A stretch of 64,000 bases of DNA from an uncultured cyanobacterium (GTDB lineage: Bacteria; Cyanobacteriota; Cyanobacteriia; Phormidesmidales; Phormidesmidaceae): the NCBI GenBank assembly GCA_963793265.1, contig CAWBZI010000006.1:1-64000 (forward strand). Direction: 5' to 3'. Positions 2,780-64,000 of this stretch are shown piece after piece. The notes under the pieces were generated by a model. That model was given only the letters and a program-made list of their open reading frames with translations. It was not told the origin of the DNA and ran no database searches. How positions within the stretch are numbered: the first letter of the stretch is position 1; the number at the start of each line of letters is the position of its first letter. The position numbers and the translations under genes are program-made.

Positions 2780-2961
2780 GGTTATTATTCCGGTAGTTAG
2801 GTACGTATTAGAGGCGGAACGCTCGTAAACCCAAAAGAAGTAAACTTGTGTTTCGCTCTGTTAATAATATAAGTGACTGTGTGAAGAAAAACATCTTCCT
2901 TAAGATTTTATTCGGTATTGGTGCGGTGGGCGATCGCACTCCCTTCACTTCCGCCCTCATT

Positions 2962-4437
2962 CTAGAAGTCAAAGTATATATAAGACGAGGCTTCTGATGG
3001 TGCTAACACCCAGGCCAGGTAAAAACAAACCGGCAGTAGCAACACCTTAATCGGCCAGCTCAACTGCAATTTCAGCCCACGCTGAACAGCATAGGCAACC
3101 CCCATCGCCGCCACCACACCCGACAGCAACAGCGTAATTTGCGGGCGGCTGAGCCCAAAAGACTCGTAATACACCTTCTGCGCGAACTGAATATCGGCAG
3201 AGTGGAAAAACAGATGACGCATTGCCAAACCAGCATCCGTTAGATTGGGTAGTCGGAAAAAGATCCAGCTAAAGAACACCGTGAGCTGAGTAATTGCCCA
3301 GGCGCAGATAATGCCGGGAATGCTCGTCCAAAAAGTAGTTAGCAGCTTCGAGCGCGCAGAGAACGATTCATTCAGTCGGTGGATGATCAGCGCAAAGCCG
3401 TGAATTGCGCCCCACACAATGAAGCCCCAGCGATCGCCATGCCAAACCCCAGCAATCAGCATCACAATCATCAAATTAATGCAGGTTCGCGCTAACCCTC
3501 GCCGTGAGCCACCCAGCGGGAAATACAGGTAGTTTCGCAGCCAGTCGCCCAGCGTGATATGCCAGCGCCGCCAAAAGCCCGCAATGCTCGTCGCGAAATA
3601 AGGAAAGTTGAAGTTCTGCGGCAGGTTAAAGCCCAACAGCAGCGCACTACCTCGCGCCAAATCCACATAGCCGCTGAAGTCGAGGTAAAGCTGTAGCCCA
3701 TAGGCAAACGCCAGCAGCCAGATGTCGCCACTGCCCGCCCGTGGCAAGCTGCTCGCGCTTGCATTCACCAGCAGCCCAATATGGTCGGCAATCAGCAGCT
3801 TTTTCACCGCCCCTGAGGCAATCAGCCATAGCCCTTCAGACACCTGACTTAGCGGCGGCAGCGTTTGCCCCTTCATCTGCGCCGTGAAGCCGTGAAAGCG
3901 CGTAATCGGCCCCGAAATCAGCTTCGGGAAAAACATTTTATAGGCTGCAAACTCCCATAGCTGCTCGCTTGCAGGCGAGCCCCGGTACACGTCTACTAAG
4001 TAGGCAATACACTCAAACGCAAAAAAGCTCAGTCCTAGCGGCATCACCCAGCCAGCGATCGGGCCTGCGGCTTCATCCGGCGTCAGCGAGGTTAACAAAG
4101 GTGAAAAATACTTGAATCCCAGCAGCAGCGCCACATTTAAGAAAATCCCTACGCATAACAACCGGGTTCGACGATTTTTCCAGTCGGCCTGAGCAAACTG
4201 CCAGGCTTCATTCGGAATTCGCCAGTCTAAGGGGGTGCCCAGCGCCTTCCCGATGAAAAAGTTAATGCCTACCAGCACCAGCATTAGCGGGATGTAGTGA
4301 AACTGCTGGAGCGAGGCGTAAAAGTACAGGCTGCTCATCAGCATGACCCAGGCTTTGGACTGCTTACCAGGCATCAGCCAGTAGAGCAAAACCACGCCAG
4401 CTAAAAAGAAACCGTAGAGAATAGACGGCAGAGTCAT
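2962..4437 (-). CDS. MBOAT family O-acyltransferase (AlgI/DltB-like)
   Basis: FPKLISGPI, YLDFSGY, FWRRWHITL and GVWHG motifs; C-terminal YIYFDF. Confidence 0.92.
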   Translation of the reverse strand: MTLPSILYGFFLAGVVLLYWLMPGKQSKAWVMLMSSLYFYASLQQFHYIPLMLVLVGINFFIGKALGTPLDWRIPNEAWQFAQADWKNRRTRLLCVGIFLNVALLLGFKYFSPLLTSLTPDEAAGPIAGWVMPLGLSFFAFECIAYLVDVYRGSPASEQLWEFAAYKMFFPKLISGPITRFHGFTAQMKGQTLPPLSQVSEGLWLIASGAVKKLLIADHIGLLVNASASSLPRAGSGDIWLLAFAYGLQLYLDFSGYVDLARGSALLLGFNLPQNFNFPYFATSIAGFWRRWHITLGDWLRNYLYFPLGGSRRGLARTCINLMIVMLIAGVWHGDRWGFIVWGAIHGFALIIHRLNESFSARSKLLTTFWTSIPGIICAWAITQLTVFFSWIFFRLPNLTDAGLAMRHLFFHSADIQFAQKVYYESFGLSRPQITLLLSGVVAAMGVAYAVQRGLKLQLSWPIKVLLLPVCFYLAWVLAPSEASSYIYFDF

Positions 4438-4500
4438 AGGAAAAAGGAGGTGTGAGGCGCAGCTTGTTTAAAGCTAAGAGCGAAACCAGAAGATAGAAGC

Positions 4501-7500
4501 TTACTCAGTCTCAGGCGGCAGGGGTTGGGGCCATGAGATTAGCGGGTCTTGAGCTAACCGGCCAGAGACTTGGTAGGCCCCGTAGCGGTTGAGGTGGCTA
4601 GGGTCTGAAAAATAGTCGTAGCGCTGAGGCCAGAGCCTGCCAAAATCACGGAAAATCATCGCCCCCGTACGCTCTGACATCTGCACCATATGCTGTCGAA
4701 ATGAAACTTCAGCCCGAGCGCGGTAGTTGTCGAGGTATTCGTCGGTCAGCGGCGTGTTGATAAAGATTACTGGCACGTCTGCAGCCGCCGTAAAGCTCAG
4801 CAGATTTCGGGTTGCATCGGCCTGCTTACCTTCCAGGCGAAAATCTTTGTAGTCGCCATCGTAAGCGCCTTTTACAACCGCGTGATCCTGGTAGTAAGTC
4901 GCAGGATTGAAGCGGGTCGAGAGCGCTAAAAAGCCATCGAAGTCGATCAGACTGGTTTCGGTGGGTGCCCCAGTCGGCGTGTCGCCAGACTGAGTGCTGC
5001 TACTGCTGGAGAAGTCGGGCGCGATCGCCCCAAACCCCTGCCCCAAAGCCGACCGAATCTTCCCCCGATACGTATATCCCGAAGACACCTGCCCCAGCAG
5101 CTCGCTCATCTGCCGGTCTGCTGCTGTCGCCCGCTCGCTCAGCAGCTCAGAAATGCTGCCCAGCGCCAGATCATTGATGCCACCGGGCGTATCACTGGCC
5201 TCTAGCTGTCGGTAGCCCTCTGAAGCAGCGATCGCATTAAACGTCACATCCACCCGACCGCTATTAAACGCCCGCGCTCCGTCAGCCCACACGATCATCT
5301 GCGGTAGCTGGTCGGGCGGAATCAGCCGCCGCACAATCAAATCCACCACCTGCGCTGTTGCGCCATTCACGCCGAAATTAAAAATATTCAGGCCATCGTA
5401 CCCGCTCGCGCCCAATGCCTGTTGCAGCGCCGCCGGATCAACCCCGCGCAGCGCCCGAGAGCTGCCAATGACCAGCACGTCCGGCGGGCCAGACTGAGCC
5501 ACCCGGCGTCGATACAGCGCCAGCTTTTCATCTAGCTGCTGACTGCTAAACGTCGGCAGCGTAGAGCCCGCTAGCAGCGATGAGGTAGACACAAATTCTT
5601 GCTGCGGGCTGTAGACCAGCTCGCCATCGTTAATCGCGGAGGCCGTGAAGTCATGACTGCCAAAGTCGTCTGTATTCGTCTCGCCCCAAACCTCAAGATC
5701 CTCTCGGTTCGCGTTCCAATCTAGGCCCGCTAGCTCTTCATCAAAAATATTAGGCTTAACAGGCACCGTCTCCGGTACTCGCTGGCTGCTAGCACCACTA
5801 TCAACCGGAACCTGGGCCGTTTTCACCACCTCTGGTATTGCCGCCTGGCGCAATGCCTGACCCACCATAAAGTCAAACTGAACGGCCAAAAACAGCCCCA
5901 CCGCGCCCCAAACCAAAGCCATTTTTCCACCTTCGGCCTGAAAAGCCTTGGGCAGCGTTTTGGAAGGCAGGCTAGCAGGCAGTTGCGAACTCAAACCACT
6001 GCTTTCCTCTGCCGGAACAAACATCTGACTTTTCACCATTGCGAACTGCAAAGCCCGCTTAATGACCGCCGTCAGCTTAATATCTTCAGCCTCATCAGCC
6101 GTACCCTCAGCTAGGCTATCGCTACCTACAGAGGTAATTAACTCACCAACATAAGCCTCAGAAGCAGCAAACTCAGGCTTCGCCTCCGGCACCATTCGCT
6201 GCCGCAGCTTATAGTCCTGCCCATACGTCCAAATCGGCTGCTTTTGCCCCGCCCGCCGACCGTAGAGCCGGATGCCTTCTGCCAGCTCAAGCGCGTTAAT
6301 CGGCTCTAGGGTTTGATTGACCAGCGGCACAATGGCATTTTTAGGTGGACACACTGGCCCATCGGCCATAATATGCAGCAGCCGGTCTTTGAGCAAAAGC
6401 TGAACGCGAATACCGCCGGTTGCAAGCTGATCTTTGATATCTGGGTTGAGCGATCGCGTCAAACAGTAGGCCAGCGCCTGCATATCACCTTTACTAGCAA
6501 GGGCGATCGCACTTTCTGCCAGCTCAGGCTTTTCAGCCGCAGGCAGCTCAATACCGCGCAGCCATTCAGGACTAATGTCGTCAGTAGAAGGCCCATAGAC
6601 CATCGCCCGATGAACGCCTTGCGGCGCGATCGCCTGCAACATCGCCCCCACATCACTCACCAGCCCGTCGATGTCCGCCTTGTGCCCAGTGCCAACCGCC
6701 TCCACCGACTTCACCACATCGCTGAGCGCATAGCTAATCAGGTGCAGCGTCTCTTTTTTACACTCCGTCACCAGCTTCAGGCCATAGCGCCGTGAAACGT
6801 GGTTCACCAGCATCGAAAGCGCGGGCACATCACCCCAACGACCCCACTCCCGCAACATTTCTTCTGGCGGGGTCAAATCCACCCGCAGTCGCCAGTCAGA
6901 GGCGGCCTCGCCCGTCACCTGAATGGTAATTACCGCATCTTGAAACTGTCGCAGGTGAAGCTGACGCAGCCGTTCAGCAATCGGCTCAGCAATCAGCAGC
7001 GGGTCTGGGCTATAGCTGGCTTCACAAAACACCCACAGCCGAGAAACAACTTCACTAGCTGATGCTTGAGTGTCTAATTTGTCTTTGCTGTTTGACTCAC
7101 TAGCTGAGTTATCTACAACCGAGTCAGATATCTCACTAGCTGATTCACTGGCTGACTCACTAGCCGATGCTAGAGGCTGAATCGCCATCACAGCTTTTGC
7201 CCGACGCGCTTTGCCAGGCACCACACGCGCGCTGACTTTCACACCCACGTTCAGCGCGCTTAGCGCCTCACTCAGGTACCGGGCGATCGCCCCCGAATCT
7301 CCCTGACGCGCTAGGCTAATATCCGAAAGCTGCTCAACTGAAACCGAAACCGCCGTCGAACCAGGAGCCTCACCAGTCGCAGTCTCGACAGTGCCCGCTA
7401 GCTTTGCCTGCTGAGCCACATAGGCCACCGCCTCAGCATCGCTAGCACCTTGAACCAGCCGTTCTAAATGCTTCTCTAGCCGATTGAGATAGATTGGCGC

Positions 7501-7809
7501 GCTCCACAGCGGCTTAGCATCGCGCGCTTTGCGGCTGTAGACATAAACCTGATAGATTTGCGGATACTCAGCTTCGAGCCGGGCTTTTACCTCGGGCTGC
7601 ATGAGCGATCGCACCAGCCGCATCAGCACATACTCGCGGGCTAAGGCGGCCTGCGTAGACTCACACAAAACATGCAGAATATTACCCCGCAGCCTGACCT
7701 GAATTTTCGTAGTCGCACCGTCTTCTGGGCGCAAGACAACCGCCCTGAGCCAAGGGATCAGCGCAGCCGGAGCGGCTTGATCAGATTGTTTGGGGGGATG
7801 ACCTAACAT
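4501..7809 (-). CDS. large membrane-anchored protein with C-terminal SGNH-like (DUF1574-type) domain; MBOAT partner
   Basis: One TM, then IGSSRA, FNFGVNGA and FSDPSHLN motifs; directly upstream of the MBOAT; start uncertain (7809 or 7854). Confidence 0.75.
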   Translation of the reverse strand: MLGHPPKQSDQAAPAALIPWLRAVVLRPEDGATTKIQVRLRGNILHVLCESTQAALAREYVLMRLVRSLMQPEVKARLEAEYPQIYQVYVYSRKARDAKPLWSAPIYLNRLEKHLERLVQGASDAEAVAYVAQQAKLAGTVETATGEAPGSTAVSVSVEQLSDISLARQGDSGAIARYLSEALSALNVGVKVSARVVPGKARRAKAVMAIQPLASASESASESASEISDSVVDNSASESNSKDKLDTQASASEVVSRLWVFCEASYSPDPLLIAEPIAERLRQLHLRQFQDAVITIQVTGEAASDWRLRVDLTPPEEMLREWGRWGDVPALSMLVNHVSRRYGLKLVTECKKETLHLISYALSDVVKSVEAVGTGHKADIDGLVSDVGAMLQAIAPQGVHRAMVYGPSTDDISPEWLRGIELPAAEKPELAESAIALASKGDMQALAYCLTRSLNPDIKDQLATGGIRVQLLLKDRLLHIMADGPVCPPKNAIVPLVNQTLEPINALELAEGIRLYGRRAGQKQPIWTYGQDYKLRQRMVPEAKPEFAASEAYVGELITSVGSDSLAEGTADEAEDIKLTAVIKRALQFAMVKSQMFVPAEESSGLSSQLPASLPSKTLPKAFQAEGGKMALVWGAVGLFLAVQFDFMVGQALRQAAIPEVVKTAQVPVDSGASSQRVPETVPVKPNIFDEELAGLDWNANREDLEVWGETNTDDFGSHDFTASAINDGELVYSPQQEFVSTSSLLAGSTLPTFSSQQLDEKLALYRRRVAQSGPPDVLVIGSSRALRGVDPAALQQALGASGYDGLNIFNFGVNGATAQVVDLIVRRLIPPDQLPQMIVWADGARAFNSGRVDVTFNAIAASEGYRQLEASDTPGGINDLALGSISELLSERATAADRQMSELLGQVSSGYTYRGKIRSALGQGFGAIAPDFSSSSSTQSGDTPTGAPTETSLIDFDGFLALSTRFNPATYYQDHAVVKGAYDGDYKDFRLEGKQADATRNLLSFTAAADVPVIFINTPLTDEYLDNYRARAEVSFRQHMVQMSERTGAMIFRDFGRLWPQRYDYFSDPSHLNRYGAYQVSGRLAQDPLISWPQPLPPETE

Positions 7810-8071
7810 TACGTAGCGATAAAAAGAAGAGCCATAGCAAAAGCACAACGCCACGGCGCTCGCTGCATTTTAAGTTACTCCTGTGCATTACGCACGAGTA
7901 GATTTTATGTAACGAGTGCGTAAATTTTCAACCGGTCAAAAGCAGCAACACGTACGTGTGCGCGTTTGATTAGAATGGTTTTTTAAGCGCCCTCTATTAT
8001 CTTCAAAGGCGGTTCAAAAGGCAGAACCTCTCTACTATATACAGACACACAGCATTCAACCGGCTATCTCT

Positions 8072-8284
8072 ATGCAATCTTTTCGTGAACCTTCTAAGCC
8101 CTCGCTTCCTGATCTGTCCGTATCTTTACCCGTCGCCGTAGAGCTGACGATTAGTGCCAGCACGCTACCTCTGCTGGCCTTACTTACAGGTGGACGGGCA
8201 ATCGCTGCTGGTCTAAATGAGCTTGGGCAGGCCAGTGAGGAAATCTTTCGGGGCGATCGCCTGCCGAGCCGTCCTCTGCTGTAG
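8072..8284 (+). CDS. small conserved cyanobacterial hypothetical protein
   Basis: 70 aa with 'LGQASEEIFRGDRLP', a motif I recognise from cyanobacterial hypotheticals. Confidence 0.65.
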   Translation: MQSFREPSKPSLPDLSVSLPVAVELTISASTLPLLALLTGGRAIAAGLNELGQASEEIFRGDRLPSRPLL

Positions 8285-8542
8285 CTCGCGCTCAAAAGCT
8301 AAGGTGTACGAAAAAGAGTGCGGAAAACTACAAAAGCAAAACCAAATAGGTGACTCAATAGTAGGAAGGCTGCTATGACAGCGCGCATCACAGCAAAGTT
8401 GTGCAAACAGCGCGCGCGTTGGCCCCAAAGCCCCTACAATCATTTCGAGCGCTTACGCTCAAAAAGCGACTATTTGCCGCACGCGGGTTCAACGACTTAC
8501 TCGCTAGGCCCTATTCACAAAAGCCCCTATTCGTAAAGCAAC

Positions 8543-11500
8543 ATGCCCACGACTCTGACAGACATCATAGAAAGTTCAGACGTTGAAGTGATTCCGAGGG
8601 TCGCCACCCACGACTGGCTATTGCGCAACCGACTCAAGCGCGTAGAAGAAACCTGGGCCGCTGTGATTAAAGACGAATGCGGCCCCGATTTAGTCGCCCT
8701 GCTTACCCGCCTTAGAAAGCTATGTGCCCCTGACGGCCAGGCCAACGCCGCCGACGCCTCGCCCGTTCTACAGCTGATCGAAGAGCTAGAGCTAAGCGAC
8801 GCCATCAAAATGGCCAGAGCCTTCGCCCTCTACTTTCAGCTCATTAATATCGTTGAGCAGCACTACGAGCAGCGCGGCCAGCAGCAGCAATATCGCGCGG
8901 CCTATGAAGACGCCGCGATCGCAGCCAACGCCCAGCCCGAAGATCATAATGGCCTGACTGATACGCGCCACACAGCCAGCGAACATACCAACAAAAGCGC
9001 CAGTAACGGCCATGTCGAACTAGACAACGCCCATACCGCTTTTGCTTCTGGGGATTCCACCCCAACTGAGCTACCCAACAGTGGAGATGTCGGTACCTTC
9101 TACTGGCTGTTTCCCACCCTCAAGCGGCTAAACGTACCGCCTCAAATGATTCAGCGCCTGCTCGATCAGCTCGACGTGCGGTTAGTATTCACCGCGCACC
9201 CCACCGAGATTGTCCGCCACACTATCCGCGACAAGCAGCGCCGCATTTCAGCCGTCCTCCGCCAGCTAGATCGCGAAGAAGAAAGCGCTCGCGGCATTGG
9301 CCTTGCCTCCTCGTGGGAAATTGAGGCGCTTCAGGCCCAGCTTGTAGAAGAAATTCGGCTGTGGTGGCGAACCGACGAGCTGCATCAGTTCAAACCGTCA
9401 GTACTCGATGAAGTAGACTTCACGCTGCACTACTTCGACGTGGTGCTTTTTGATACTATTCCTCAGCTTTATCAGCGCATCTGTCGGGCGTTGCAAGGCA
9501 CTTTTCCGACGCTAACGCCGCCGAAGCAGAGCTTCTGTCGGTTTGGATCTTGGGTAGGGAGCGATCGCGATGGCAACCCCTCAGTCACCCCTCAAGTCAC
9601 CTGGAAAACCGCCAACTTCCAGCGCAATATGGTGATTGGCAAATACGTTGCCTCCATTAAAAAGCTCACCCACCTGCTAAGCCTGTCGCTGCACTGGAGT
9701 GAAGTGCTGCCCGAACTGCTCGAATCGCTAGAGCAAGACCAAACCCAAATGCCCGAGCTGTATGATGAGCTAGCCATTCGCTACCGGCAGGAGCCCTACC
9801 GGCTAAAGCTCGCCTACATTGAAAAGCGCTTGGAAAACACGCTGACCCGATCTGAAAAGCTCTACAACGGCGAATACCTGCAAGAGCAAGAAACCAACCT
9901 GGATACCGGGCTTGCAAAAGGTCGTATCTACGCTTCTGGCGACGACTTTTTAAGCGAGCTAGAGCTGATCCAAACCAACCTTAAAGAAACTGGCCTGGTT
10001 TGCCAGGATCTTGAAGAACTGATCTGTCAGGTCAGAATTTACGGCTTCAATCTTGCCCAGCTCGATATCCGCCAGGAGAGCACCAACCACTCCGATGCCA
10101 TTAACGAAGTCACCGAATATCTAGGCGTACTCAACGAGCCCTACAACGATCTGTCCGAAGAAAACAAAAACAAGTGGCTAATCAGCGAGCTTTGCACCCG
10201 TAGGCCATTGATTCCCGGCGAACTGCCGTTCTCTGAAAAGACCGTTGAAATCATCCAAACCTTTCGGATGGTGCGCAGGCTACATCAAGAATTTGGCCCC
10301 GGCATTTGCCAGAGCTACATCATCAGCATGAGCCACACCGCCAGCGACTTGCTAGAGGTCGCTTTGCTTGCCAAAGAAGCCGGTCTTTACGATCCGGCAA
10401 CCGGCGTCGGTGCGCTCAAAATCGTGCCTTTGTTTGAAACTGTCAACGACCTGCGGCTGGCCCCTGATGTTATGCGCCAGCTATGGGAGCTACCGCTGTA
10501 TCGGGCGATGCTGCAAGGCGGCTATGAAGCCATAGAGGCGGCTAAAGCTCAGCCAGAAAAGGCCGAGACAGCCTTACAAGAAGTCATGCTGGGCTACTCA
10601 GATAGCAATAAAGACTCAGGTTTCTTGAGCAGCAACTGGGAAATTCATAAGGCCCAGCAAGCTTTGCAGGGCCTCGCCGACAACTACAATGTGGCCCTCA
10701 GAATTTTCCACGGTCGCGGCGGCTCAGTCGGTCGCGGCGGTGGCCCTGCTTACGAGGCAATTTTGGCGCAGCCCGGTCGCAGCGTGGACGGTCGCATCAA
10801 AATTACTGAGCAAGGTGAAGTGCTGGCCTCTAAATACAACCTGCCAGATTTGGCCTTATACAATCTGGAAACGGTGACCACAGCCGTGATTCAGGGCAGT
10901 GTACTCGGCAGCAGCTTTGACAGCATTGAGCCCTGGAACGAGATTATGGAGCGGCTAAGTGTCAGATCGCGCGAACACTACCGCGCCCTCATCTACGAGA
11001 ATCCTGATTTGGTGGAGTTCTTTCATCAGGTTACGCCTGTTCAAGAAATCTCTCAATTGCAAATTAGCTCTCGCCCTGCCCGTCGCAAAGGCAAGCGTAA
11101 TCTAGACGGCCTGCGCGCGATTCCTTGGGTCTTTAGCTGGACGCAAACTCGCTTTTTGCTACCGTCCTGGTATGGCGTGGGCACAGCGCTAAAGGAATTT
11201 ATTGACGAGAATCCTGAAGAGCATTTGGAAATGCTGCGCTATTTTTACTCAAAGTGGCCTTTCTTTAAGATGGTGATCTCTAAAGTAGAAATGACCCTGG
11301 CGAAAGTTGATCTGCAAATTGCGCAGCACTACGTCAGTCAGCTCAGTAGTGACGACAAAATAGAAGACTTCCAGGCGATGTTCGATCAAATTGCCAGTGA
11401 GTTTTATCAAACTCGCGGCGTTGTACTCGATATTACTGAGCATACAAAGCTGCTAGATGGCGACCTAAGCTTGCAGCGATCTGTGCAGCTTAGAAATGGT

Positions 11501-11671
11501 TCGATTGTGCCGCTGAGCTTTTTGCAGGTGGCGCTATTGAAGCGATTGAGAGAATATGGCAACGATGCGGTGACCGGGAGAGTGCGATCGCGCTACAGCA
11601 AAGGCGAACTTTTACGAGGCGCACTGCTCACCATTAACGGCGTTGCAGCCGGTATGCGAAATACAGGCTAG
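8543..11671 (+). CDS. ppc: phosphoenolpyruvate carboxylase
   Basis: [21 protein letters not shown] and [12 protein letters not shown] motifs; C-terminal RNTG. Confidence 0.98.
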
Positions 11672-11679
11672 GGAACTTC

Positions 11680-11877
11680 TCAAGCTGCTGTGGATAGCTG
11701 AGACACTGCCTTTTCTGAGAGAAAACGGCGAAAGTGCAAGATTTCTATAATCAGCAGCTTATCATCTTCAGAATAGTGAAGAATAGCCCCGCCATCATCT
11801 TCAGCGTATGCAATGTCTCCTTCTGATAGCTCAATTAATAGAGCATCTACGTCTTCGCTATAGCTAATTTTTTTCAT
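11680..11877 (-). CDS. DUF2283-family protein (putative antitoxin-like)
   Basis: MKKISYSEDVDALLIELS...ILHYSEDDKLLIIEIL pattern. Confidence 0.75.
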   Translation of the reverse strand: MKKISYSEDVDALLIELSEGDIAYAEDDGGAILHYSEDDKLLIIEILHFRRFLSEKAVSQLSTAA

Positions 11878-11920
11878 ATCTTGATCGCTTTCCTACATGT
11901 AGAGTAATGTCGATTAGGGT
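11864..11920 (-). pseudogene. 3' relic of DUF4258-like partner gene
   Basis: ...ITLHVGKRSRYEKN* overlaps the DUF2283 start; no upstream start codon. Confidence 0.4.
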
Positions 11921-11935
11921 CTAATACCTAATCTG

Positions 11936-13972: not shown

Positions 13973-14202
13973 TGAGTTAAACCTATCTTCTCGCTCAAGC
14001 CGATCCAGACTAGCGCATCGCCTGCCAACCGTCGCATAGCAATAGCGTCAAATTCAAATTGTAATTCGTACAAACTATCGCTGAATTCGTCTTTTTTCGT
14101 ATAGTTAGTATTTTAATTTATACTTAAGTTAAACAGTAAGAACACTTATAGCTAAACCGGTTTACCACCAGGCAAACGTCCAAGCTAAAAGAAGCGATCG
14201 CT

Positions 14203-54229: not shown

Positions 54230-54332
54230 TGTATTCAGGCACTCCTACACAGTGGTCAAGCCTACAATATACAGCAACGAAAAAAGGCACATTCTACAAT
54301 GCGCCTCGTATGTTCGGATATTGAATTTCTAA

Positions 54333-54376
54333 AAGTCTAAAGGCCGAATCAAATCAGCCTTATCGAGTCAAGACTT
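54333..54376 (-). terminator. terminator after DUF4278 gene
   Basis: Minus strand AAGTCT..AAGGCTGA-loop-TCGGCCTT.AGACTT followed by TT. Confidence 0.5.
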
Positions 54377-54553
54377 CTAGCGGACAACTGCGCCCCGGTA
54401 CTTGAGCACATCGCTGGTCTTGCGAGCAGCCGCACCAACCGCACGACGCACATGGTAGGTAGCGCCACGGTAGTGACCAATTTCTTCAGTCTCAGTGACT
54501 TCAACAGCAGGTGCAGTCGTGTTGTACTTTACGCCGCGATAAGATAGTTGCAT
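54377..54553 (-). CDS. DUF4278-family small protein (missing from ORF track)
   Basis: MQLSYRGVKY...GHYRGATY...LKYRGAVVR*, 58 aa with three YRG motifs; GAGG RBS. Confidence 0.88.
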   Translation of the reverse strand: MQLSYRGVKYNTTAPAVEVTETEEIGHYRGATYHVRRAVGAAARKTSDVLKYRGAVVR

Positions 54554-54589
54554 GGTATTCGCCTCAAATAGAGTGTGTATTTGTAAGAG

Positions 54590-54689
54590 GCGCGTTCCTT
54601 CAGAGCCGTTAAGCCCTTACTTCCGTCTTTACATCCAACAGCGACCGTTAGTGAACTTCAAGGTCAGTACTGAATAAAAGATGAACGCT
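54590..54689 (-). ncRNA. glutamine riboswitch (glnA-motif type) with extended P2
   Basis: Minus strand CGTTCATCT...AGACGGAAGTAAG...CTGAAGGAACGCG consensus blocks upstream of DUF4278. Confidence 0.85.
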
Positions 54690-54699
54690 TTGTTTTTCT

Positions 54700-54713
54700 G
54701 TATTCAATTATAC
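54700..54713 (-). promoter_or_regulatory. NtcA box overlapping TATAAT -10 element
   Basis: Minus strand GTA-TAATTGAA-TAC (GTA-N8-TAC) containing TATAAT. Confidence 0.65.
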
Positions 54714-54762
54714 GGTTTTGAAAAACAGTTAACAATAGGTACAAACACCTTTTCTTGATTTC

Positions 54763-57223
54763 TTAATATTTGCCCGCCATTTCAGCACTTATCGCGCCCT
54801 CAAGCGTACCTACAGGCGCTCGATAAAAATATTGACGGCGAAACTGCTCCTCTTGCACAGCACTCAAAAAGCGTCCAAGTGTCTCATCCGATAGCGCCTG
54901 CTGCTCTGAAGGATCTAATAGCTCTGTTTGCCCAGGCGTGTGCTCAGAGCGAAACTGAAAACGGATATCAATGGCCGAACGCTTCACGATAAAGCCGTGC
55001 TGAGCTAGCGCAGATAGGCCCAAAGATAGGGTGCGATCGCTCACATCCAGCTTTTCGCCCAGCCGCTCCGGCGTCGCAGCCAACTGCTCTCGACTCAAAT
55101 ACTTCGCCAGCCCCAGCAGCATTTTCCACTTATATATAGGATCGACTTCCGCCGGAGCCGGATAGGCTAGCGCTAGCGGCTGACGCATTTGATCGGCCTG
55201 ATGTCGCCACAGTGAAAGCTCCTGCCACCGCGTCGGACAGTCACTCAAAATCAGATCTGTCTCAGAGGTTCTAACGCTATCTTCAGGCGTCCGCCAGTCC
55301 AAAAGCCAGCCAGCCCCATTAGCGAGCCTTGCCGATCTCTGACTACTAGCCGCCCCGTCAGCCGTTGCCGCCACAGTTGGCCGAATGTCCACCAGTCGAA
55401 TCTCATACCGGCGGCTCTTAGGATGGCTGTTATAGTCCAGCTCAGCGATTACATCCCACCGGCCCGGCGGCAAATCATCTTTGTAATGCCCCCACCAAAG
55501 CCCTGGAAATTGTCGGGTGCGATCGCCCCCAATACTCTCATCACACAAATCAAAGCTCGCCTTAATATAGCCAACCTTCCCCCCCATCCGATCCTTCAGC
55601 TTTTGATGCCACACATTCTCAAACCAGCAGTTCTCAATCAGCAGCTTTGGCACCGGATTGCCCATACCGCAAGGCTCCAACAGCTTCAATTCCTGAAATA
55701 GCTCCCGACCCAAATCAGCCACCGTCACCTTCAAATCAGCCTTCACCACCGGCTGATTCTGACCGCCGCCCTTTTGCCGGTACTGCTGATTAATCGCCGC
55801 CGTAAACATCGACAAATCCTTCACCGGCAAACTCAGGCCCGCCGCAAACGGATGCCCGCCAAAGCCCGTCAGCAAATGCGCCTGCGAACTTCACCAGCTC
55901 ATACAAATCAATCTGATTCACCGACCGCGCCGATCCCCTCGCCAGCGTCTCACCCGCTTCACTGCTCCCTTCCGCCTCAGGCCGATCCAACGTCAGCAAA
56001 ATAGTTGGCCTACCGTACTGCTGCGCCACCTGCCCGGCCACTAAGCCCAACACCCCGACCGGCCACTGCGCATCACACAGCACAATCACGCCCATCGTCG
56101 AAAGATCGCGAGCTTCTAGCTGACGAATCACCTGCTGCAACACATCGTTTTGCAACGCCTTCCGACGCGCGTTTGCCAGCTCAGCCTTTTCAGCCAGCAC
56201 CCGGCAGCGCTCAGCGTCTTTACTCGTCAGCAGCTCCACACAAAAGCTAGCGTCGCCATAAATGCGGCTCACAGCGTTAATGCGCGGGCCGATGCCAAAG
56301 GAAATATCAGTGGGGCGATCGCCCGCTCGCCGACACAGCGCCAGCAGCCGCGCCACCCCCGGCCTCACTGGCTCATCCGTCTGCAAATGGGTCTGCAACT
56401 GCTCAATCCCAATCTGCGCCAAATACCGGCAGTCTCCTTTCAGCTCTACCAAATCGGCAATCAAACCAATCGCCACCAAATCCACCAGCTCTCTTAGCGG
56501 CCTAGTCGGCACCTCGGGCAGTCGCTCATACAGCGCCTCTATCAGCTTGTAAGCCACCGCCACCCCTGACAAATGCGCCATCGGATGCCCCGCAGGCAGC
56601 GCCCGAGGATTCACAATCGCCACCACCGCAGGCCGCACCTTCGGCAGCGTATGGTGATCGCTCACAATTACCGCCATTCCCAACGCATTAGCCCGCTCAA
56701 TCTCCAGTGGATTTGTGCTGCCCGTATCGCAGGTCACAATCAGCTTTACGCCCTGCGCCGCAAGCTGCTCAATCCCCATCATCGAGAGTCCATGAGACTC
56801 TTTCAGCCGGTTAGGAATGAAATAAGTGAGCTGATCTGGCTCTGTGAAAAACTGTCGCAGTCCGTCCCACAGCACCGCCGTCGAAGTCACCCCGTCTGCG
56901 TCGAAGTCGCCCCAAATAGCCACTTTTTCAGCGCGATCACGTGCCACCACCAGCCGATCCACGGCCCACACCATCTCCTCACCAAACTCAAACGGACCGG
57001 CTGGCGTGTATGCTTGCGATCGCAAAAACCCCTCCAGCGCCTCAGCCGACCTCAGCCCTCTATTCCATAGCAACTGCGCTCCCCATACCGGATGCGACAG
57101 TCCCGTAACACGAGCCACCGTCTTCACCCACTCACTCCGCTGCGCCCCCGACAGCTCCACCGAAGCCATTTGCCAGGTCGTCAAGCGATCAGGTTCTTGC
57201 TGAGCAGGCGAGTTCTGAGCCAT
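54763..57223 (-). pseudogene. recJ: ssDNA exonuclease RecJ with one frameshift at about 55888 (probably sequencing error)
   Basis: GDFDADG, SDHH, GPRINA and RGSARS; GGHPFAAG lies in the other frame. Confidence 0.9.
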
Positions 57224-57467
57224 AGAACACAAAAGATGGGTTAGTAAAATTCCAAGCTAGCACTTCGCTCATGAAAAAATATCAGCGGGGCCGCAAATCA
57301 GTTCGACCACTAAACAATCTGGCAGCTATCACCGCAGACATCATCCCAAACGGGTACGTTGAAGCTGTTAGAAAGCGCTATTAAAAGCATTTGCTCGAAT
57401 ATTTACGAGCAACCACTTCAGGCTTTTAACTGCTCAGATAGAATAAGCGCAACTCAGAAAGGAAACA

Positions 57468-58628
57468 TTGGAGATGAAGCTAGGTGACTGGGTAAGTCTG
57501 CTGTGTTTTATAGCAGCAGCATATATTTTGTGGCACATCAGGCCGCTGCTGCTGCTGTCATTTGCAGCCGTTGTCATCGCTGTCGCGCTCAACAGCCTTA
57601 CCAGGCAAATTCGCAAACTCAACGTGCCTCGCCGATTCGCAATTCCAGTTGCGATCGCCCTTTCTACCCTCGTCGCCTCCCTCTTCATCCTCGGCATCGT
57701 ACCGCCTTTTGTAGAACAGTTCAGACTCCTCATAGAGCTAGTCGTCGGCTTCTCCCAAACTCTACCCGACCGTATGATGCAGCTACAGGGCTCTCTGCCT
57801 GAGCGCATCCGCCTGCCAGAATTTGGCGAATTTGTTGAATGGCTTACCGCCCCAGACTCCGCCGTTCTAGACGTTTTTAGCAACTTCTTCTCCTTCTTTA
57901 ACTCATCCCTGCGCGTTCTACTGCAAACGCTTTTCGTCGGTGTGCTCGCCGTGATGATGCTCTCGAACCCTGCAGCCTACCTAGAAGGCGTACTGCTGCT
58001 ATTTCCTGCCTTCTACCGGCGGCGCGCCCGCGAAATTTTTAGTCAGTGCGAGCTAGCCCTTGGCAACTGGCTCGGCGGCATCGTCATCAGCTCCCTTTTC
58101 GTATTCACCGTTAGCTTCATCGGGCTGTTAGTTCTCGGCGTCGATCTCGCCTTTGCCCATGCGCTATTAGCAGGCGTTCTCAACTTCATTCCCAATATCG
58201 GGCCCACCTTGAGCATGGGGTTTCCGCTGGTGGTGACGCTGATCTCAGATGAGCCCTGGAAGGCGATCGCAGTCATCGGCCTCTATATCGTCATCCAACA
58301 GGCAGAATCCTACTGGGTCACCCCCGCTATCATGGCCCACCAAGTCTCCCTCCTCCCCGCCTTCACCCTCATCGCCCAAATCTTCTTCGCCAGCACCTTC
58401 GGATTTCTCGGCCTCCTGCTTGCCCTCCCCCTCACCGTTGTCACCAAAACCTGGCTCCAAGAACTCCTCATCAAAGACGTACTTGACCACTGGAATCTCT
58501 CGCCCATCAAGCGCCGCGCCGCAGCAAACGTGACCATAGCCCCTCAAAACATAAACGCGTCTCCAGAAGATCCGCTTAGCCCACCCACCCCTCAAGCCAC
58601 GACACCAGACACCGGCTTAGCGCAATGA
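57468..58628 (+). CDS. AI-2E family transporter
   Basis: LNFIPNIGP, QQAESY..TP and GFLGLLLALP motifs. Confidence 0.9.
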   Translation: MEMKLGDWVSLLCFIAAAYILWHIRPLLLLSFAAVVIAVALNSLTRQIRKLNVPRRFAIPVAIALSTLVASLFILGIVPPFVEQFRLLIELVVGFSQTLPDRMMQLQGSLPERIRLPEFGEFVEWLTAPDSAVLDVFSNFFSFFNSSLRVLLQTLFVGVLAVMMLSNPAAYLEGVLLLFPAFYRRRAREIFSQCELALGNWLGGIVISSLFVFTVSFIGLLVLGVDLAFAHALLAGVLNFIPNIGPTLSMGFPLVVTLISDEPWKAIAVIGLYIVIQQAESYWVTPAIMAHQVSLLPAFTLIAQIFFASTFGFLGLLLALPLTVVTKTWLQELLIKDVLDHWNLSPIKRRAAANVTIAPQNINASPEDPLSPPTPQATTPDTGLAQ

Positions 58629-58691
58629 AGCGCCCTGTCTAATCAACAAAAATGGGAACGATAGAGAAGCATTTTCGCCTGCTCATTCAAC

Positions 58692-60233
58692 ATGTCTTCT
58701 CCCAATAACGCATTCGCTGAGAGCATCAAGCACCTGCAAACGCTGCTGATGTCATTTCACCCCATTGTTGTGATCGAAACGGTAGAAGAAGAGCGCGTCC
58801 AAACCCTGCTCGATAAAGCAACCGGCGAACTTCAAATCAGTACTTTCGACTGGAGCGTCGCCCAAGGACTCAGCCGCCTGCAAAGCAGCACTAGCCACTG
58901 GAAAAACGAATACGCCCCACTCGGCAGCACTCGGCAGGTCATCGAAAAAACCACCGATCCGCTAGATCTACTGCGCCACATTCAAAACGCACCGACCCGA
59001 GGCGTCTACTGGCTCAAAGACTTCGCCACCCATTTAGAAGACGCCGTGATCGCCCGCCAGCTCAGAGAAGTCGCCCATGCCTTCAGCTCGCACCAGTCCG
59101 CCCTTATCCTCACAGGCGAACAGGTTTGGCTCCCTAAAGAAACCGCCCACGAAGCCGTCTACTTCAATCTCCCGCTACCCGGCCCTATCGAACTCAAAAA
59201 AGCCATCGACACCGCCGTCCAGTCCTGTCGCGGTCGAGTGAAAGTCGATCTCTCCCCTAAAGACTCTCAGCAGCTCATCAAAGCCGTTCAGGGCATGACC
59301 CTCAAGCAAACCAAAAAAGTCATTGCCTACGCTGCCATCTCTGACGGCAAACTCAACTCGGATGACATCCACCGCGTCCTAGAGCGCAAAATCCAGGTCA
59401 TCCACGAAACCGGCCTGCTTGACTACTTCCCACCCGAACAAAACACCGCTCAGCTCGGCGGCTTTGCCAACCTCAGACAGTGGCTCAACCGCGCCCGCAC
59501 CGGCTTCTCCGACCAGGCCAAAAGCTTCGGCCTCACCCCGCCCAAAGGCATCCTCATCGTCGGCATTCAGGGCTGCGGCAAATCCTTAGCCGCCAAAACC
59601 ATCGCCCGCCAGTGGCAAATGCCCCTGCTCAAACTAGACACCGGCAAACTTTACGACAAGTACGTTGGCGGCTCAGAGAAAAACTTCCGCCAGGCAGTCG
59701 GCCTAGCCGAAAAGCTAGCGCCCGCTGTCCTGTGGGTAGACGAAATCGAAAAAAGCATGGGCCAAAGCGGTAGCGACACCGATGGCGGACTCAGCCGCAG
59801 ACTCTTCGGCTCTTTCCTCACCTGGCTTCAGGAAAAATCTGAGGAAGTTTTCGTTGTCGCCACGGCCAATGACATTTCAGCTATCCCCCCCGAACTCCTC
59901 CGCAAGGGCCGCTTCGACGAGATCTTCTTTGTAGACTTGCCCGATGCGCAGGAGAGAGCGACCATCTTGCAAATCCACATGACGCTCCACCGGCAAGAGC
60001 CCAAAAGGTTTGATATTCCCCGGCTCGTCCTCGCTAGCGACGGCTTCAGCGGTGCAGAAATTGAGCAGGCCATTATCACCGCACTTTACCACGCCCTTTA
60101 TGAACGCTGCCCGGTTAATACCGATCTCATTGAGCAAACAATTAAAGCCACGGTGCCTTTGTCGGTATCAAGGCGCGAGGACTTACAGAGATTGAGAGCG
60201 ATCGCCCAAACCCGTTTCGTCAGCGTGAAATAG
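58692..60233 (+). CDS. Ycf46-type AAA ATPase
   Basis: [16 protein letters not shown] and [19 protein letters not shown] motifs. Confidence 0.9.
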
Positions 60234-60253
60234 GGTTCTGTCTAAAGCGATAT

Positions 60254-61066
60254 TTACTTTCTAGCAATCAACAGAAGACGAAAAGCTGCTTTTTCTGGCG
60301 AACCAAACAAATGTGGCTTCAGCAGCTTAGAAACACAGCGGAAGCCAGCTTTTACCAGTCCATCAACCAAAGCCTCTTCAGTCGCCCAAAAAGAAAAAGT
60401 ATTATCCAAAGAAGCTCTTACCTTCTTATATTTCTCCTGCTCAGAGGCATTGTTCTCATGCTCTCGGTACAGGTAGCCTTCGTAGCCACTTTCTGTTGTA
60501 ACAGGCCCCTCAAGCCGGAAGCTCTTCACAGAAGCAGGCGTACTAACATGTGTATACAAAAAAACAGTGTCCGTGCTCAACGAAGCTAACGTTTGCAGCA
60601 TTCCTTCAAAAGAAGGCTGACCGAGATGATGCAAAATGCCGGAAAAAACGACGCACTCAAACGTACCTACTTCCGAAGGGTTCACTGTCCGCACATCGCC
60701 CTGACGGAAGCTAGCATTTTCTACACCCAAGGCTTTAGCGGCAAACGCAGCCCTATCGACATATATCTGGCGACCTTCTACGCCCACAACATTCGCCCCG
60801 GCCTGAGCCAGGCGAATCGAATGAACCCCTTCGGCTGAAGCCAAATCGAGTATGCTCAGGCCGCCTAGCTGACCGCGCTTGCAGTGCAAAGGGAGAACTT
60901 CTTTCAGTAGCTCGCCGAGCTTACCAAGTCCAACCGCCTTGTTATAGAACTTTTCTTCCTTAGGAGAAACCGTCTCTATGCCATGCCCAAAATTAAAATA
61001 GTGCGCCCATGGAATTGAGGGCTCTAGCTGGGCAAGACCTTGCTTAATTTCTTCTGGATTCATCAT
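60254..61066 (-). CDS. class I SAM methyltransferase (DUF1698/CmoB-like fold)
   Basis: ILDLASAEG, VGVEGR and GILHHL motifs; start uncertain (61066 or 61123). Confidence 0.8.
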   Translation of the reverse strand: MMNPEEIKQGLAQLEPSIPWAHYFNFGHGIETVSPKEEKFYNKAVGLGKLGELLKEVLPLHCKRGQLGGLSILDLASAEGVHSIRLAQAGANVVGVEGRQIYVDRAAFAAKALGVENASFRQGDVRTVNPSEVGTFECVVFSGILHHLGQPSFEGMLQTLASLSTDTVFLYTHVSTPASVKSFRLEGPVTTESGYEGYLYREHENNASEQEKYKKVRASLDNTFSFWATEEALVDGLVKAGFRCVSKLLKPHLFGSPEKAAFRLLLIARK

Positions 61067-61166
61067 ATCGGTACTGTTCAAATCTATGCTGTTCAAGTTT
61101 TTACGCGAGCCCGAAAAGCGCAAGCAGCCCTAAGCTGAAAGTGCGAAGCATTCAATTAGGATCTTT

Positions 61167-62021
61167 ATGAAGCTTACCGCTAACCAGCCCCCTGCGACGG
61201 CCCTTCTCTTTGCTGCTATTTTCTCTGTCCAATTCGGCTCTGCACTGGCCAAGTATCTGTTTGATGACCTTGGCCCCTGGGGTGTTGTAGCGCTACGCGT
61301 TAGCTTTTCAGCCTGCCTGCTCTTCGCCCTGTGGCGCTTTAAGTGGAACGCGCAAGTTCGCCAGAACCTGAAGCTTCTCATTGCTTTCGGCGTCATCTTT
61401 GCGATGATGAATTCTTGCTTTTACTTATCGATCGCCCGCATTCCCTTAGGTGTTGCGATCGCTCTAGAATTCACCGGCCCCCTCGGCCTCACTATCCTCA
61501 AATCCCAGCGCTGGCTCGACGGCCTCTGGGCGCTTCTAGCCGCCATCGGCATCATCCTCATCACCCCGCTTACAGGCGCGACCCTCGACCCCTGGGGAAT
61601 TACTTTCGCCCTCATCGCAGGCATCTGCTGGGCGCTCTACATCGTATGCTCTGCTGAAGTCGGCCAAAAGATTTCCGGCATCGAGGGGCTCGCTTGGGCC
61701 TTGGCCGTCAGCTCCATTTTGCTACTCCCTATTGGCATCGCTACCGCAGGCAGCGCTCTGTTAGATCCCAAGCTTTTACTCATGGGCGCAGGCGTCGCGG
61801 TTCTCTCAACTGCCCTGCCCTACTCGCTTGAGATGATTGCGTTGCGATCGCTCCCTATCAAAGTCTTCGGCGTCATGCTCAGTATGGAGCCTATGGTCGG
61901 GGTTTTAGCAGGATTTATTATTTTGGGTGAGAAGCTATCGGTGCGATCGCTCACCGCCTGCATCCTCGTCTCTATTGCCGCCGCAGGAGCAGCCAGGTTC
62001 AAAGATCCGGTTCAACCCTAA
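61167..62021 (+). CDS. EamA/RhtA-like DMT exporter
   Basis: SVQFGSALAK, RIPLGVAIALEFTGPL and PYSLEM motifs. Confidence 0.9.
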   Translation: MKLTANQPPATALLFAAIFSVQFGSALAKYLFDDLGPWGVVALRVSFSACLLFALWRFKWNAQVRQNLKLLIAFGVIFAMMNSCFYLSIARIPLGVAIALEFTGPLGLTILKSQRWLDGLWALLAAIGIILITPLTGATLDPWGITFALIAGICWALYIVCSAEVGQKISGIEGLAWALAVSSILLLPIGIATAGSALLDPKLLLMGAGVAVLSTALPYSLEMIALRSLPIKVFGVMLSMEPMVGVLAGFIILGEKLSVRSLTACILVSIAAAGAARFKDPVQP

Positions 62022-62121
62022 AGACGCCAACAGAAGACATCAACCAAAGTTTATCAAAGCCGACTGGGTAACCTACAGAGGCAACGGCCCGTATCTTCTA
62101 CCCATCAGCCATCTTTGCGCT

Positions 62122-62832
62122 ATGTCTTTGACCGCTCTGTCACTCCCGATGTCACCTGAAGACTTCAGCGAGCTTTTTCCCCTCTTCAAAGCCGCTAGCC
62201 CCGAAACCCTCAAGACGCTACACGAAGGCGCGACCTTTAACGAGTGCCCGGCTGGTCGCACCGTCCTCATGGAAGACTCTTGGGGCAACGCCGTCTATCT
62301 CATCGTCTCCGGCTGGGCCAAAGTCCGCGTGCAGTCGGGCGATGGCTACGTCACCCTGGTCATCTTAGGCAAAGGCGAATACTTTGGCGAAATGGCCGTC
62401 CTCAACGAATCTCCCCGATCTACCGATGTCGCTGCCCTCTCGCGAGTAGAACTCGTTAGCATCCCCGCCCAACTCTTCATCCAAACCCTCTTCAAAGACC
62501 CTCAGCTCCACCACCGAATGCTACAGAGCATGGTGCAGCGGCTCAAGCAAACCCAAAAACGCTTTCAGCTCCGCAACAAGCCCCCTGGCGTAAAAATGGT
62601 CTACGCCCTCGTCGATATCGCTGACGCCTATGGCGAAGAAGTGGGCGATACAGTGGAAATCTTTAATATTCCAGTCAGCGATTTAGCCGCCATCTCAGAC
62701 GTAACGCTCAATGAAGTACCTAAAATTCTAGAAAAGCTCGCTGCCCGCAAATGGCTAAAAGTCGATACTCACAGAGACGTCATCCAGCTACTAGACATGA
62801 AAAACCTTAGACACCTTTCCAAGCTGGGCTAG
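62122..62832 (+). CDS. Crp/Fnr-family transcriptional regulator
   Basis: cNMP-binding fold FGEMAVL..SPRSTDV and C-terminal HTH-like region. Confidence 0.85.
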   Translation: MSLTALSLPMSPEDFSELFPLFKAASPETLKTLHEGATFNECPAGRTVLMEDSWGNAVYLIVSGWAKVRVQSGDGYVTLVILGKGEYFGEMAVLNESPRSTDVAALSRVELVSIPAQLFIQTLFKDPQLHHRMLQSMVQRLKQTQKRFQLRNKPPGVKMVYALVDIADAYGEEVGDTVEIFNIPVSDLAAISDVTLNEVPKILEKLAARKWLKVDTHRDVIQLLDMKNLRHLSKLG

Positions 62833-62934
62833 TAGCGACCTTTAAGTTTTTCGGTGGATTAATGAATTCTGCCCACTCTTTTTCTACAGTAGAGAGAATT
62901 TCCAGATGCTCTACTAGAGATTGAGAGATCGCAC

Positions 62935-63414
62935 ATGAACATTCAGCCGCCTCCCATTTCACCTCGTCAGATGAATCTGCTGCGCGTCGTTCTCTCTATG
63001 GCTTGGGCTGACAAAAGCCTGGAGCAAAAAGAAGTAGATACCATGCTCACTCGCTTCAGCCAGCTATTCTCTACCGATCTAAACCAGCAGAAAGCACTAC
63101 AGCACCAGCTTCAAGAATATTTCGTTCAAGACGTACCACTTAAAGAGGCTGTTGCCAAGCTCACCACCGATGAAGAGAAAGAAGTCGCGCTTCGCCTCTC
63201 TTACGAAGTTATTAACGCCAGTAAGCGTACGCCAGAGGAAGACGCGGTTAATGAAGCTGAAAGCGAAGCCTACACAGCGCTTGTAAGCCTGCTTAATTTA
63301 CCTGAAGATACCGTCAAACGAGCAGAGCAAGAAGCAACCGCCTCACTTAGCAAAGGCGGCGAAAACGTAATCGACATGCTTGCCTTTCAAATACGCGATC
63401 GCATCTCCCCATAA
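62935..63414 (+). CDS. TerB-family protein
   Basis: MAWAD..L..KE and VNEAE motifs. Confidence 0.75.
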   Translation: MNIQPPPISPRQMNLLRVVLSMAWADKSLEQKEVDTMLTRFSQLFSTDLNQQKALQHQLQEYFVQDVPLKEAVAKLTTDEEKEVALRLSYEVINASKRTPEEDAVNEAESEAYTALVSLLNLPEDTVKRAEQEATASLSKGGENVIDMLAFQIRDRISP

Positions 63415-63453
63415 CATCGCACGGGCACAAGGCATTGCGCCCTCCGGCTCCAA

Positions 63454-64000
63454 CTAACGGCTCATCGCCAACATCCGCTCAATAGGCACAAGCGCATTCG
63501 CCTGAATCTCTGCCGGGATCGTAATCTCAGGCGTCTTATTCTTCATTGCTAAGTACAGCTTCTGCAACGTATTCAACCGCATATACGGGCACTCGTTACA
63601 CGCACAGTTCGCCTCCGGTGGCGCTGGAATAAAGTGCTTTTCAGGCACTTGCTTTTCCATCTGGTGAATAATGCCAGGCTCTGTAGCAACAATAAAGCGA
63701 TCGCTCTGACTCGTCTCCACATACTTCAGCAGCGCTGTCGTAGACCCAATAAAGCTTGCGTGCCGCAGCACACCCTCTTCACACTCAGGATGCGCAATAA
63801 TCTCCGCATCGGGGTGCTCCATCTTAAGCTGCAACATCTTCTTCTCAGAAAAAGTCTCGTGCACAATGCAGCTACCCTGCCACAGCACCATATCGCGCCC
63901 AGTCTGAGCCATCACATACCGGCCCAAGTTACGATCCGGTGCAAAAATAATCTTCTGCTCAGCCGGTAGCTGATTCACCAGCTTCACCGCATTCGAGCTA
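63454..64000 (-). CDS. nadA: quinolinate synthase, 5' end outside window
   Basis: APDRNLG, GSCIVHE, AHPEC and CPYM motifs. Confidence 0.95.

Follow-up and report, generated by a model that had tools for sequence, protein, structure and literature searches.

The question raised by this stretch of cyanobacterial DNA is whether the palindromic octamer HIP1 (GCGATCGC) marks points at which the composition of the strand changes direction, and which process would leave such a mark. The window, by which we mean the whole 64-kb stretch analysed, lies on contig C6 of the 7-contig, 5.68-Mb genome G000 and contains 81 HIP1 copies, the first at 584 and the last at 63697. HIP1 is by far the most over-represented palindromic octamer of G000, with 6,888 copies or about 1 per kb; the next commonest palindromic octamer has 401. 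From hand-picked examples, the original prediction held that the plus strand is G/T-rich before HIP1 and C/A-rich after it. Indeed, the switch from G-rich to C-rich was found at 72 of the 81 window sites and at 5,919 of the 6,888 genome sites, and is thus not a product of the chosen examples; among 5,000 random window positions, 49% flipped in this direction. With all sites of the genome averaged, the mean GC skew over all positions 3-60 nucleotides (nt) from HIP1 was +0.160 on the left and -0.171 on the right, a difference of 0.33 that is antisymmetric about the palindrome. Control palindromic 8-mers (100 words, at least 50 copies each) had no comparable effect (difference -0.009, standard deviation 0.039), the single abundant exception being ATCGCGAT, which is able to overlap HIP1. 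The T/A half of the predicted pattern was overstated, since the TA-skew difference over the same positions was only 0.10 and A and T change little at four-fold degenerate sites. To summarize, HIP1 carries a real and strong footprint that depends on the complete octamer and recurs widely among cyanobacteria.

Individual sites illustrate the pattern, and the counts given for them earlier were reproduced, save for one base at 58263:

584..63704, no strand: HIP1 array of 81 pivots, 5' G-rich and 3' C-rich, with zones of ~60-150 nt and a weaker tail
2911..2962, no strand: intergenic example, a G-rich 19 nt (9 G, 2 C), HIP1 at 2930-2937 and a C-rich 25 nt (1 G, 13 C)
18714..20447, plus strand: HerA-like ATPase gene with a change of third codon positions at HIP1 19990-19997 (14 of 18 G/T before, 14 of 20 C/A after) and a return to G/T before HIP1 20424-20431 (22 of 25)
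29970..29977, no strand: HIP1 within minus-strand gene 29149-30381, 5 G and 19 C in the 60 nt after
36457..36464, no strand: HIP1 within minus-strand gene 35860-37461, 17 G and 12 C before, 8 G and 28 C in the 60 nt after
40322..40329, no strand: HIP1 within minus-strand gene 39889-41001, 7 G and 27 C in the 60 nt after
41623..41630, no strand: HIP1 within plus-strand gene 41419-42948, 21 G and 15 C before, 11 G and 23 C after
55519..55526, no strand: HIP1 in the 3' frame of a minus-strand recJ-like gene, 3 G and 26 C in the 60 nt after
58263..58270, no strand: HIP1 within plus-strand gene 57468-58628, 20 G (21 in the earlier count) and 16 C before, 11 G and 21 C after

The HerA-like gene serves as an example only, and any mechanistic role for it is putative.

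Shape of the footprint

Genes were called with our own hexamer model (4,739 genes, 85% coverage), and each four-fold base was assigned to its nearest HIP1 with no additional spacing filter. Four-fold GC skew on the coding strand was +0.61 on the 5' side and -0.62 on the 3' side at 6-10 nt from HIP1, +0.42/-0.42 at 21-40 nt, +0.26/-0.25 at 61-100 nt and +0.09/-0.10 at 201-300 nt. Here G is raised and C lowered, with A and T nearly unmoved, and the frequency of G goes from ~0.46 to ~0.11 across the octamer. Two-fold sites shift alike (at 21-40 nt, T share 0.66 vs 0.37 and G share 0.67 vs 0.40). The skew is strongest at synonymous sites and persists in the intergenic class, which includes missed short genes because of our own gene calls, with +0.24/-0.28 at 6-10 nt and +0.08/-0.14 at 21-40 nt. 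The claimed independence of gene strand holds as well: plus-strand skew was +0.40/-0.44 in plus-strand genes and +0.41/-0.45 in minus-strand genes, and we rejected codon bias and gene orientation as explanations on this ground. The G/C shift was present in every neighbour context (0.72-1.27). Even amino-acid use tilts on the 5' and 3' sides relative to positions far from HIP1 (Val 1.15/0.87, Thr 0.90/1.18, Glu 1.06/0.85).

The skew decays on a fixed scale, with a 58-nt component and a tail of ~1 kb, and skews from facing HIP1 sites cancel. An Okazaki-interval model, in which decay scales with site spacing, was rejected for its poorer fit (negative log-likelihood 285,315 vs 283,748). The nearest HIP1 contributed 1.29 +/- 0.03 to the short component and the second-nearest -0.03 +/- 0.17; paired sites gave 0.551 +/- 0.027 and isolated sites 0.543, against an additive expectation of 0.63-0.65. 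The short component thus obeys the nearest HIP1 only. To the long component the second-nearest site adds a little (0.13 +/- 0.03 vs 0.42). Left and right amplitudes were equal (1.19-1.36 logit) in G-rich, middle and C-rich blocks of 50 and 100 kb, so, judged by regional skew, the sole source of replication direction in this 7-contig assembly, the footprint does not follow the leading or lagging strand; a dependence on replication strand was rejected accordingly. Far from HIP1, four-fold GC skew is patchy (about -0.29 to +0.32 in 50-100-kb blocks) and does not form two clean replichores. Correction of cruciforms or quasi-palindromes was also rejected: complementarity between mirrored positions (offsets 4-60) was 0.2543, compared with 0.2553 for shuffled partners.

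Sequence specificity and spread

HIP1 had been introduced as a target of methyltransferases that recognise GATC (DmtA) or CGATCG (DmtC). Tested on words more than 300 nt from HIP1, neither GATC (n=9,353, difference -0.013 +/- 0.007) nor CGATCG (n=520, +0.008) showed a footprint, compared with 0.81 for HIP1, so it is the full octamer that is needed. We screened 52,428 8-mers in both orientations (at least 40 copies, same distance limit). The top words were GCGATCAC/GTGATCGC and words overlapping them, and a generic effect of palindromes or GC-rich words was rejected because the leading 8-mers were HIP1 variants and overlapping words. Among the one-off variants, GTGATCGC retained 0.70 (n=378), followed by GAGATCGC (0.32), GCAATCGC (0.20) and ACGATCGC (0.16); seven further ones lay between -0.09 and +0.10, and GGGATCGC was opposite (-0.24, n=64). 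GTGATCGC is the expected product of 5-methylcytosine deamination in HIP1, the commonest one-off variant in G000 (766 copies vs 168-466) and the commonest replacement of HIP1 in relatives (23/113). We read the positive variants as decayed HIP1 sites. A one-sided effect of half-sites, expected under Elhai's rule that each G-mC (G-methylcytosine) half-site acts on its own side, was first seen as 0.35 vs -0.11. It is not claimed here, since control cores (mostly 0 to 0.2 / -0.07 to -0.37) share much of the asymmetry of the HIP1 half-sites (0.33/-0.10).

Two further observations concern other words in G000. Those around GGATC (GGGATCGC, CGATCC, CGGATC, GGGATC) show a small opposite flip of -0.11 to -0.24. 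GGCGCC is nearly absent (5 matches vs ~220 for a control word), and palindromes such as GGCCGGCC and CCGGCCGG have one or two copies each, which points to strong restriction-site avoidance.

Loci of the same genus were available from 30 of 45 relatives, and all 30 were more G-skewed to the left of HIP1 than to the right. For a wider survey we counted C against G at 22 nt 3' of HIP1 in 67 whole genomes, namely those of 50 of 79 named loci, G000, three of the same genus and 13 of a class-level set of 16, from which three HIP1-poor genomes were left out. At this single offset, a coarse measure, and in genomes that are related and thus not independent, 62 were positive, 50 with z>3 and none with z<-3, with a median of +0.083; the built-in control word gave 2,757 G vs 2,767 C. 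The strongest values were those of G000 (+0.224), a Phormidesmis record (+0.219), Spirulina subsalsa (+0.215), G004 (+0.209) and Leptothoe spongobia (+0.199), and Nostoc, Anabaena and Microcoleus records reached ~ +0.08 to +0.12. In Prochloron the value changed from -0.27 at a locus with 6 sites to +0.11 in the genome, which shows that small-locus values are unreliable.

Under Elhai's rule, palindromes that replace HIP1 should act as it does, and little of this was seen. In genome G027 the replacement palindrome GGGATCCC (63 sites) gave -0.02 +/- 0.03 at 3-60 nt and -0.24 +/- 0.07 at 3-20 nt. GGCGCC in two Calothrix genomes gave +0.019 and +0.006, and two of the three HIP1-bearing Calothrix genomes are also near zero. 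Genome G029 has 53 HIP1 sites in 20 kb, almost no footprint (+0.012) and no match to a C5 methylase. In three loci (L135, a Nostocaceae record, L119 and L134) the palindromes TAGCGCTA and TCGATCGA rival HIP1 locally, with 9 copies of TAGCGCTA vs 4 of HIP1 in 11 kb.

Substitutions in close relatives

We aligned three genomes of the same genus, G004, G007 and G009, codon by codon, at a four-fold divergence of ~0.32-0.37. In 53,684 four-fold pair comparisons, the ratio of observed to expected divergence was 0.93-1.08 in all bins at least 4 nt from a shared HIP1, and 1.10 and 0.85 at 1-3 nt. A reversible fit to the pairs, expressed as near/far rates on the strand 5' of HIP1, showed rising A>G (1.50), C>G (1.75), C>A (1.55), T>G (1.30) and C>T (1.28) and falling G>C (0.74), G>T (0.77), T>C (0.92) and G>A (0.93), with a total distance of 0.50 near and 0.458 far. 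A non-reversible star-tree fit to triplets (108 genes, 1,762 near sites), with wide intervals, gave A>G 1.50 [1.15-1.96], C>G 1.91 [1.06-3.46] and C>T 1.39 [1.02-1.90], the only changes excluding 1 in the 4-60 nt class. Here T>G (1.34), A>C (1.37) and C>A (1.07) were also above 1, and G>C (0.44), G>T (0.63), T>C (0.76) and G>A (0.94) below it, at a total rate of 0.246 near vs 0.227 far. The fitted equilibrium (C 0.14, G 0.41) resembled the observed composition. One fixation-bias parameter each suffices for the T/G and C/T pairs, and A/G is ~20% high on both sides. The direction of substitution is approximate, because the root was set at the trifurcation and the similarity of the trio is mosaic. 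Pairwise identity among G004, G007 and G009 ranges over 79-93% in neighbouring blocks with a changing closest pair, a sequence pattern that suggests recombination among these lineages.

These data show that DNA 5' of HIP1 gains G and loses C on each strand, and that the process is still acting. In the triplets, the flank skew was 0.06-0.08 for HIP1 sites present in one of three genomes (12 sites), 0.26-0.31 for those in two (19) and 0.40 for those in all three (85). Since probable new sites are unskewed, the skew appears to follow the site, which fits HIP1 as its cause, and the bias would accumulate after a site has appeared. The opposite order, with HIP1 arising in places already skewed, is disfavoured by the same probable gains (12 sites only); a pair-based test of pre-existing skew was ambiguous (0.18 with HIP1, 0.20 without). 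Nearly flat total divergence, together with reverse changes that tend to fall, points to biased survival of alleles rather than to added mutation. It also argues against simple resection damage or error-prone synthesis as the principal cause, a correction to the original prediction, which had pointed to nicking, resection or repair synthesis at HIP1; its polarised footprint anchored there stands, and nicking at the site stays putative.

Proposed strand choice at HIP1 and competing explanations

Our preferred reading, with a probability of roughly 45%, is that a mismatch triggers excision from the nearest HIP1 and that one strand is favoured in this process. The mismatch, to which MutS/MutL would probably bind, might stem from replication, damage or heteroduplex between chromosome copies or with transforming DNA. 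It would provoke nicking at the closest HIP1, on the strand that has HIP1 5' of the mismatch. The nicked strand would be removed 5'->3' for tens to hundreds of bases and recopied from the other, and G.T, G.G and G.A mispairs would be resolved toward the strand with HIP1 on its 3' side. The geometry would be constant at every HIP1 and the choice blind to which strand is new, so substitutions would be tilted and their total not lowered. Mispairs containing G (G.T, G.G, G.A) are those most often formed and recognised by MutS, and C.C and C.T are poorly recognised; given this preference, the kept strand would win with G or T. The nearest-site rule fits such a mismatch-triggered search better than constitutive nicking at all sites. 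These considerations suggest that HIP1 decides which strand survives the repair of mismatched DNA.

The process is likely to be a variant of the nick-directed mismatch processing postulated earlier for this octamer. In Elhai's model of mismatch repair directed by G-methylcytosine (G-mC), a nickase at methylated HIP1 lets MutS/MutL degrade one strand (PMC4390886). Palindromic extensions of HIP1 by 1-2 bases, e.g. G-HIP1-C, are reported there, and the available text of that paper describes no flank skew beyond them and no excision direction. The model is framed as preserving fidelity, whereas the footprint leaves total divergence flat. In the Dam/MutHLS system of E. coli, a short palindrome by the mismatch likewise sets the strand for excision, and distance weakens its effect (PMC4390886). 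Unlike that system, G000 and four other genomes had no match to MutH (5/5, with a positive E. coli control), GATC alone lacks a footprint (-0.013, n=9,353), and a lowered substitution rate expected near the signal is not what we observed (0.246 near vs 0.227 far). MutHLS excision also runs in both directions and would leave no polarity.

Searches of repair genes fit a MutH-less system. The MutL of G000 has a DQHA-like motif, EQHIAHERVLYE, and CPHGRP. The endonuclease type of MutL, found where MutH is lacking, is marked by motifs of the DQHA(X)2E(X)4E type and CPHGRP. NucS (PF01939) had no match in G000 and weak partial matches in three of the four other genomes tested. According to the available text of PMC5101192, MutH is absent from all cyanobacteria and mutS is present in all those examined. 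We found recJ in 67/67 genomes and mutL in 64/67. The recJ-like gene of the window (54763-57232, minus strand) is broken into two frames of 480 and 370 amino acids covering model positions 6-386 and 391-480, through either a frameshift or misassembly; contig C5 carries another recJ match, which is intact. In G000, G004, G055, G026, G039, G072, G078, G086, G097, G106 and G107, one recJ copy lies in a long frame of ~1,080-1,230 amino acids, vs 700-850 in most other genomes.

Skews of strand composition are also seen at meiotic hotspots and yeast Okazaki junctions. Together with terminus GC skew and annealing repair, these share with HIP1 a switch from G-rich to C-rich by strand-asymmetric processing. 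The HIP1 switch differs in that it recurs ~6,900 times, ~every 0.8 kb, on a ~58-nt scale, independently of regional skew and in bacteria. Strand-biased resolution of mismatches after single-strand annealing is described in the part of PMC9001825 available to us. A role like that of Chi was proposed for HIP1 (bioRxiv 10.1101/2024.09.10.611283, as far as the accessible text goes), and Chi and DNA-uptake sequences are likewise over-represented octamers tied to recombination or transformation. Chi, however, is non-palindromic and strand-biased (PMC5861425, available text), whereas HIP1 is palindromic and acts equally on both sides in all regional classes. In the literature, as far as its searchable text extends, we found no description of a flanking G/C skew gradient at Chi or DNA-uptake sequences. 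For HIP1 none was described in the open literature, judged by titles and the start of abstracts, with supplements and subscription papers outside this scope; in the available texts of PMC4390886, PMC5861425 and PMC13756078 the string 'asymmetr' is absent and 'skew' occurs 0, 0 and 2 times, both on sampling. The footprint thus seems to be undescribed before.

The strongest competitor, unlikely as we judge it, is that HIP1 is cut or nicked and resected 5'->3', which would leave the strand 5' of HIP1 as a 3' tail able to invade a sister chromosome or the recipient. Alleles that enrich this tail in G would pair better or be more likely to survive conversion, a polar gene-conversion drive. It has the same geometry and the same up-and-down shape of fixation bias, it would explain the weaker intergenic effect, where homology between strains is lower, and a HerA-like gene lies in the window. 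However, independent cuts should add up, and a second site adds nothing to the short component. In addition, RecA prefers G/T-rich DNA, contrary to which T is not favoured over A.

Weak selection on the flanks, with a protein that loads at or slides from HIP1 working better on 5' G-rich DNA, is improbable. It would give the same up and down rates at a flat total, and conservation is seen at HIP1 itself (295 isolated shared sites vs 113 unshared occurrences; also PMC5861425, in its available part). However, selection would have to act on single bases at distances of hundreds of positions from ~6,900 sites, whatever the neighbouring bases; the duplex GC content is unchanged and offers nothing to act on, the amino-acid shift looks like a cost, and intergenic DNA responds least.

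We give still less credence to a roadblock, in which a HIP1-bound protein would halt nick translation by Pol I and leave an error-prone patch 5' of the site on the lagging strand. The nearest-site rule and the ~58-nt scale suit it, and misincorporation of G would raise A>G, C>G and T>G, with a total rate ~8% higher. Yet it predicts a one-sided, replication-directed effect, whereas amplitudes are equal in G-rich and C-rich regions (direction from regional skew only), and the falling G>C, G>T and T>C stay unexplained.

Damage to single-stranded DNA, with resection from HIP1 exposing the 5' strand to C->U and A->I deamination, is largely excluded as the sole cause and very improbable overall. It accounts for C>T at 1.39 and A>G at 1.50 on the exposed strand and for the move of two-fold sites toward T and G, but not for the missing rise of T at four-fold sites (0.23 vs ~0.25), for C>G rising at least as much as C>T, or for reverse rates that tend to fall at nearly flat total divergence. 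A form of Elhai's model with one-way excision, in which hemimethylation directs purely corrective repair to the new strand 3' of HIP1, is barely tenable. It agrees with the fall of G>C, G>T and T>C and with the need for the full octamer, which holds both G-mC steps. Under it, however, positions near HIP1 should diverge less and no substitution rate should exceed the background, whereas we see flat or marginally raised divergence and higher A>G, C>G and C>T; a one-sided half-site effect is also not clearly beyond controls.

Several results also weigh against mismatch-triggered excision. The intergenic effect is about a quarter of the four-fold effect (0.22 vs 0.83 at 21-40 nt). The intervals of the falling rates are wide and cross 1 at 4-60 nt, with only G>C excluding it in the 4-100 class, and the rises exceed the falls, which makes some added mutation possible. 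The data would look the same under a mirror model, in which C-containing mispairs are processed by 3'->5' excision, and only the MutS preferences given above speak against it. Neither a nicking enzyme nor a protein that binds HIP1 emerged from the gene searches; mutL and recJ are carried by genomes both with and without the footprint, and mutL was not found in G107 (completeness not given) despite its strong footprint (+0.199). Matches to a C5 methylase, surveyed with a single query from G000 and with target specificity not assigned, were unrelated to skew (mean 0.083 in 33 genomes with, 0.075 in 34 without); G000 itself has 8 candidate C5-methylase matches. The value is close to zero in about 15 of the 67 genomes and slightly reversed in Synechocystis salina (-0.049, z -3.0), the reversal of -0.39 at its locus (13 sites) having shrunk to this value genome-wide at one offset. 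pSYSM gave no reversal (-0.03 +/- 0.05, 32 sites).

Beyond excision from the nearest site, we tentatively put forward the wider possibility that HIP1 supplies the strand signal so far missing from mismatch processing in cyanobacteria, one blind to the new strand, and that its reader steers one-way 5'->3' excision and creates a phylum-wide drive between G and C strands. If so, the drive would rewrite synonymous sites, and even amino-acid use, every ~0.8 kb, with a lineage-specific strength that is lost or slightly reversed in some, e.g. Synechocystis. The function of HIP1 has been open for about 30 years, and strand choice for repair in MutH-less bacteria is also unsettled. The footprint shows directional DNA processing from HIP1 in living populations and supplies its geometry, a length scale of ~58 nt, a substitution signature and natural negative lineages. 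Analyses of codon bias, of the ratio of nonsynonymous to synonymous substitution (dN/dS) and of GC skew in cyanobacteria assume that synonymous sites are independent of the distance to an 8-mer, an assumption violated here, where four-fold G changes from ~0.46 to 0.11.

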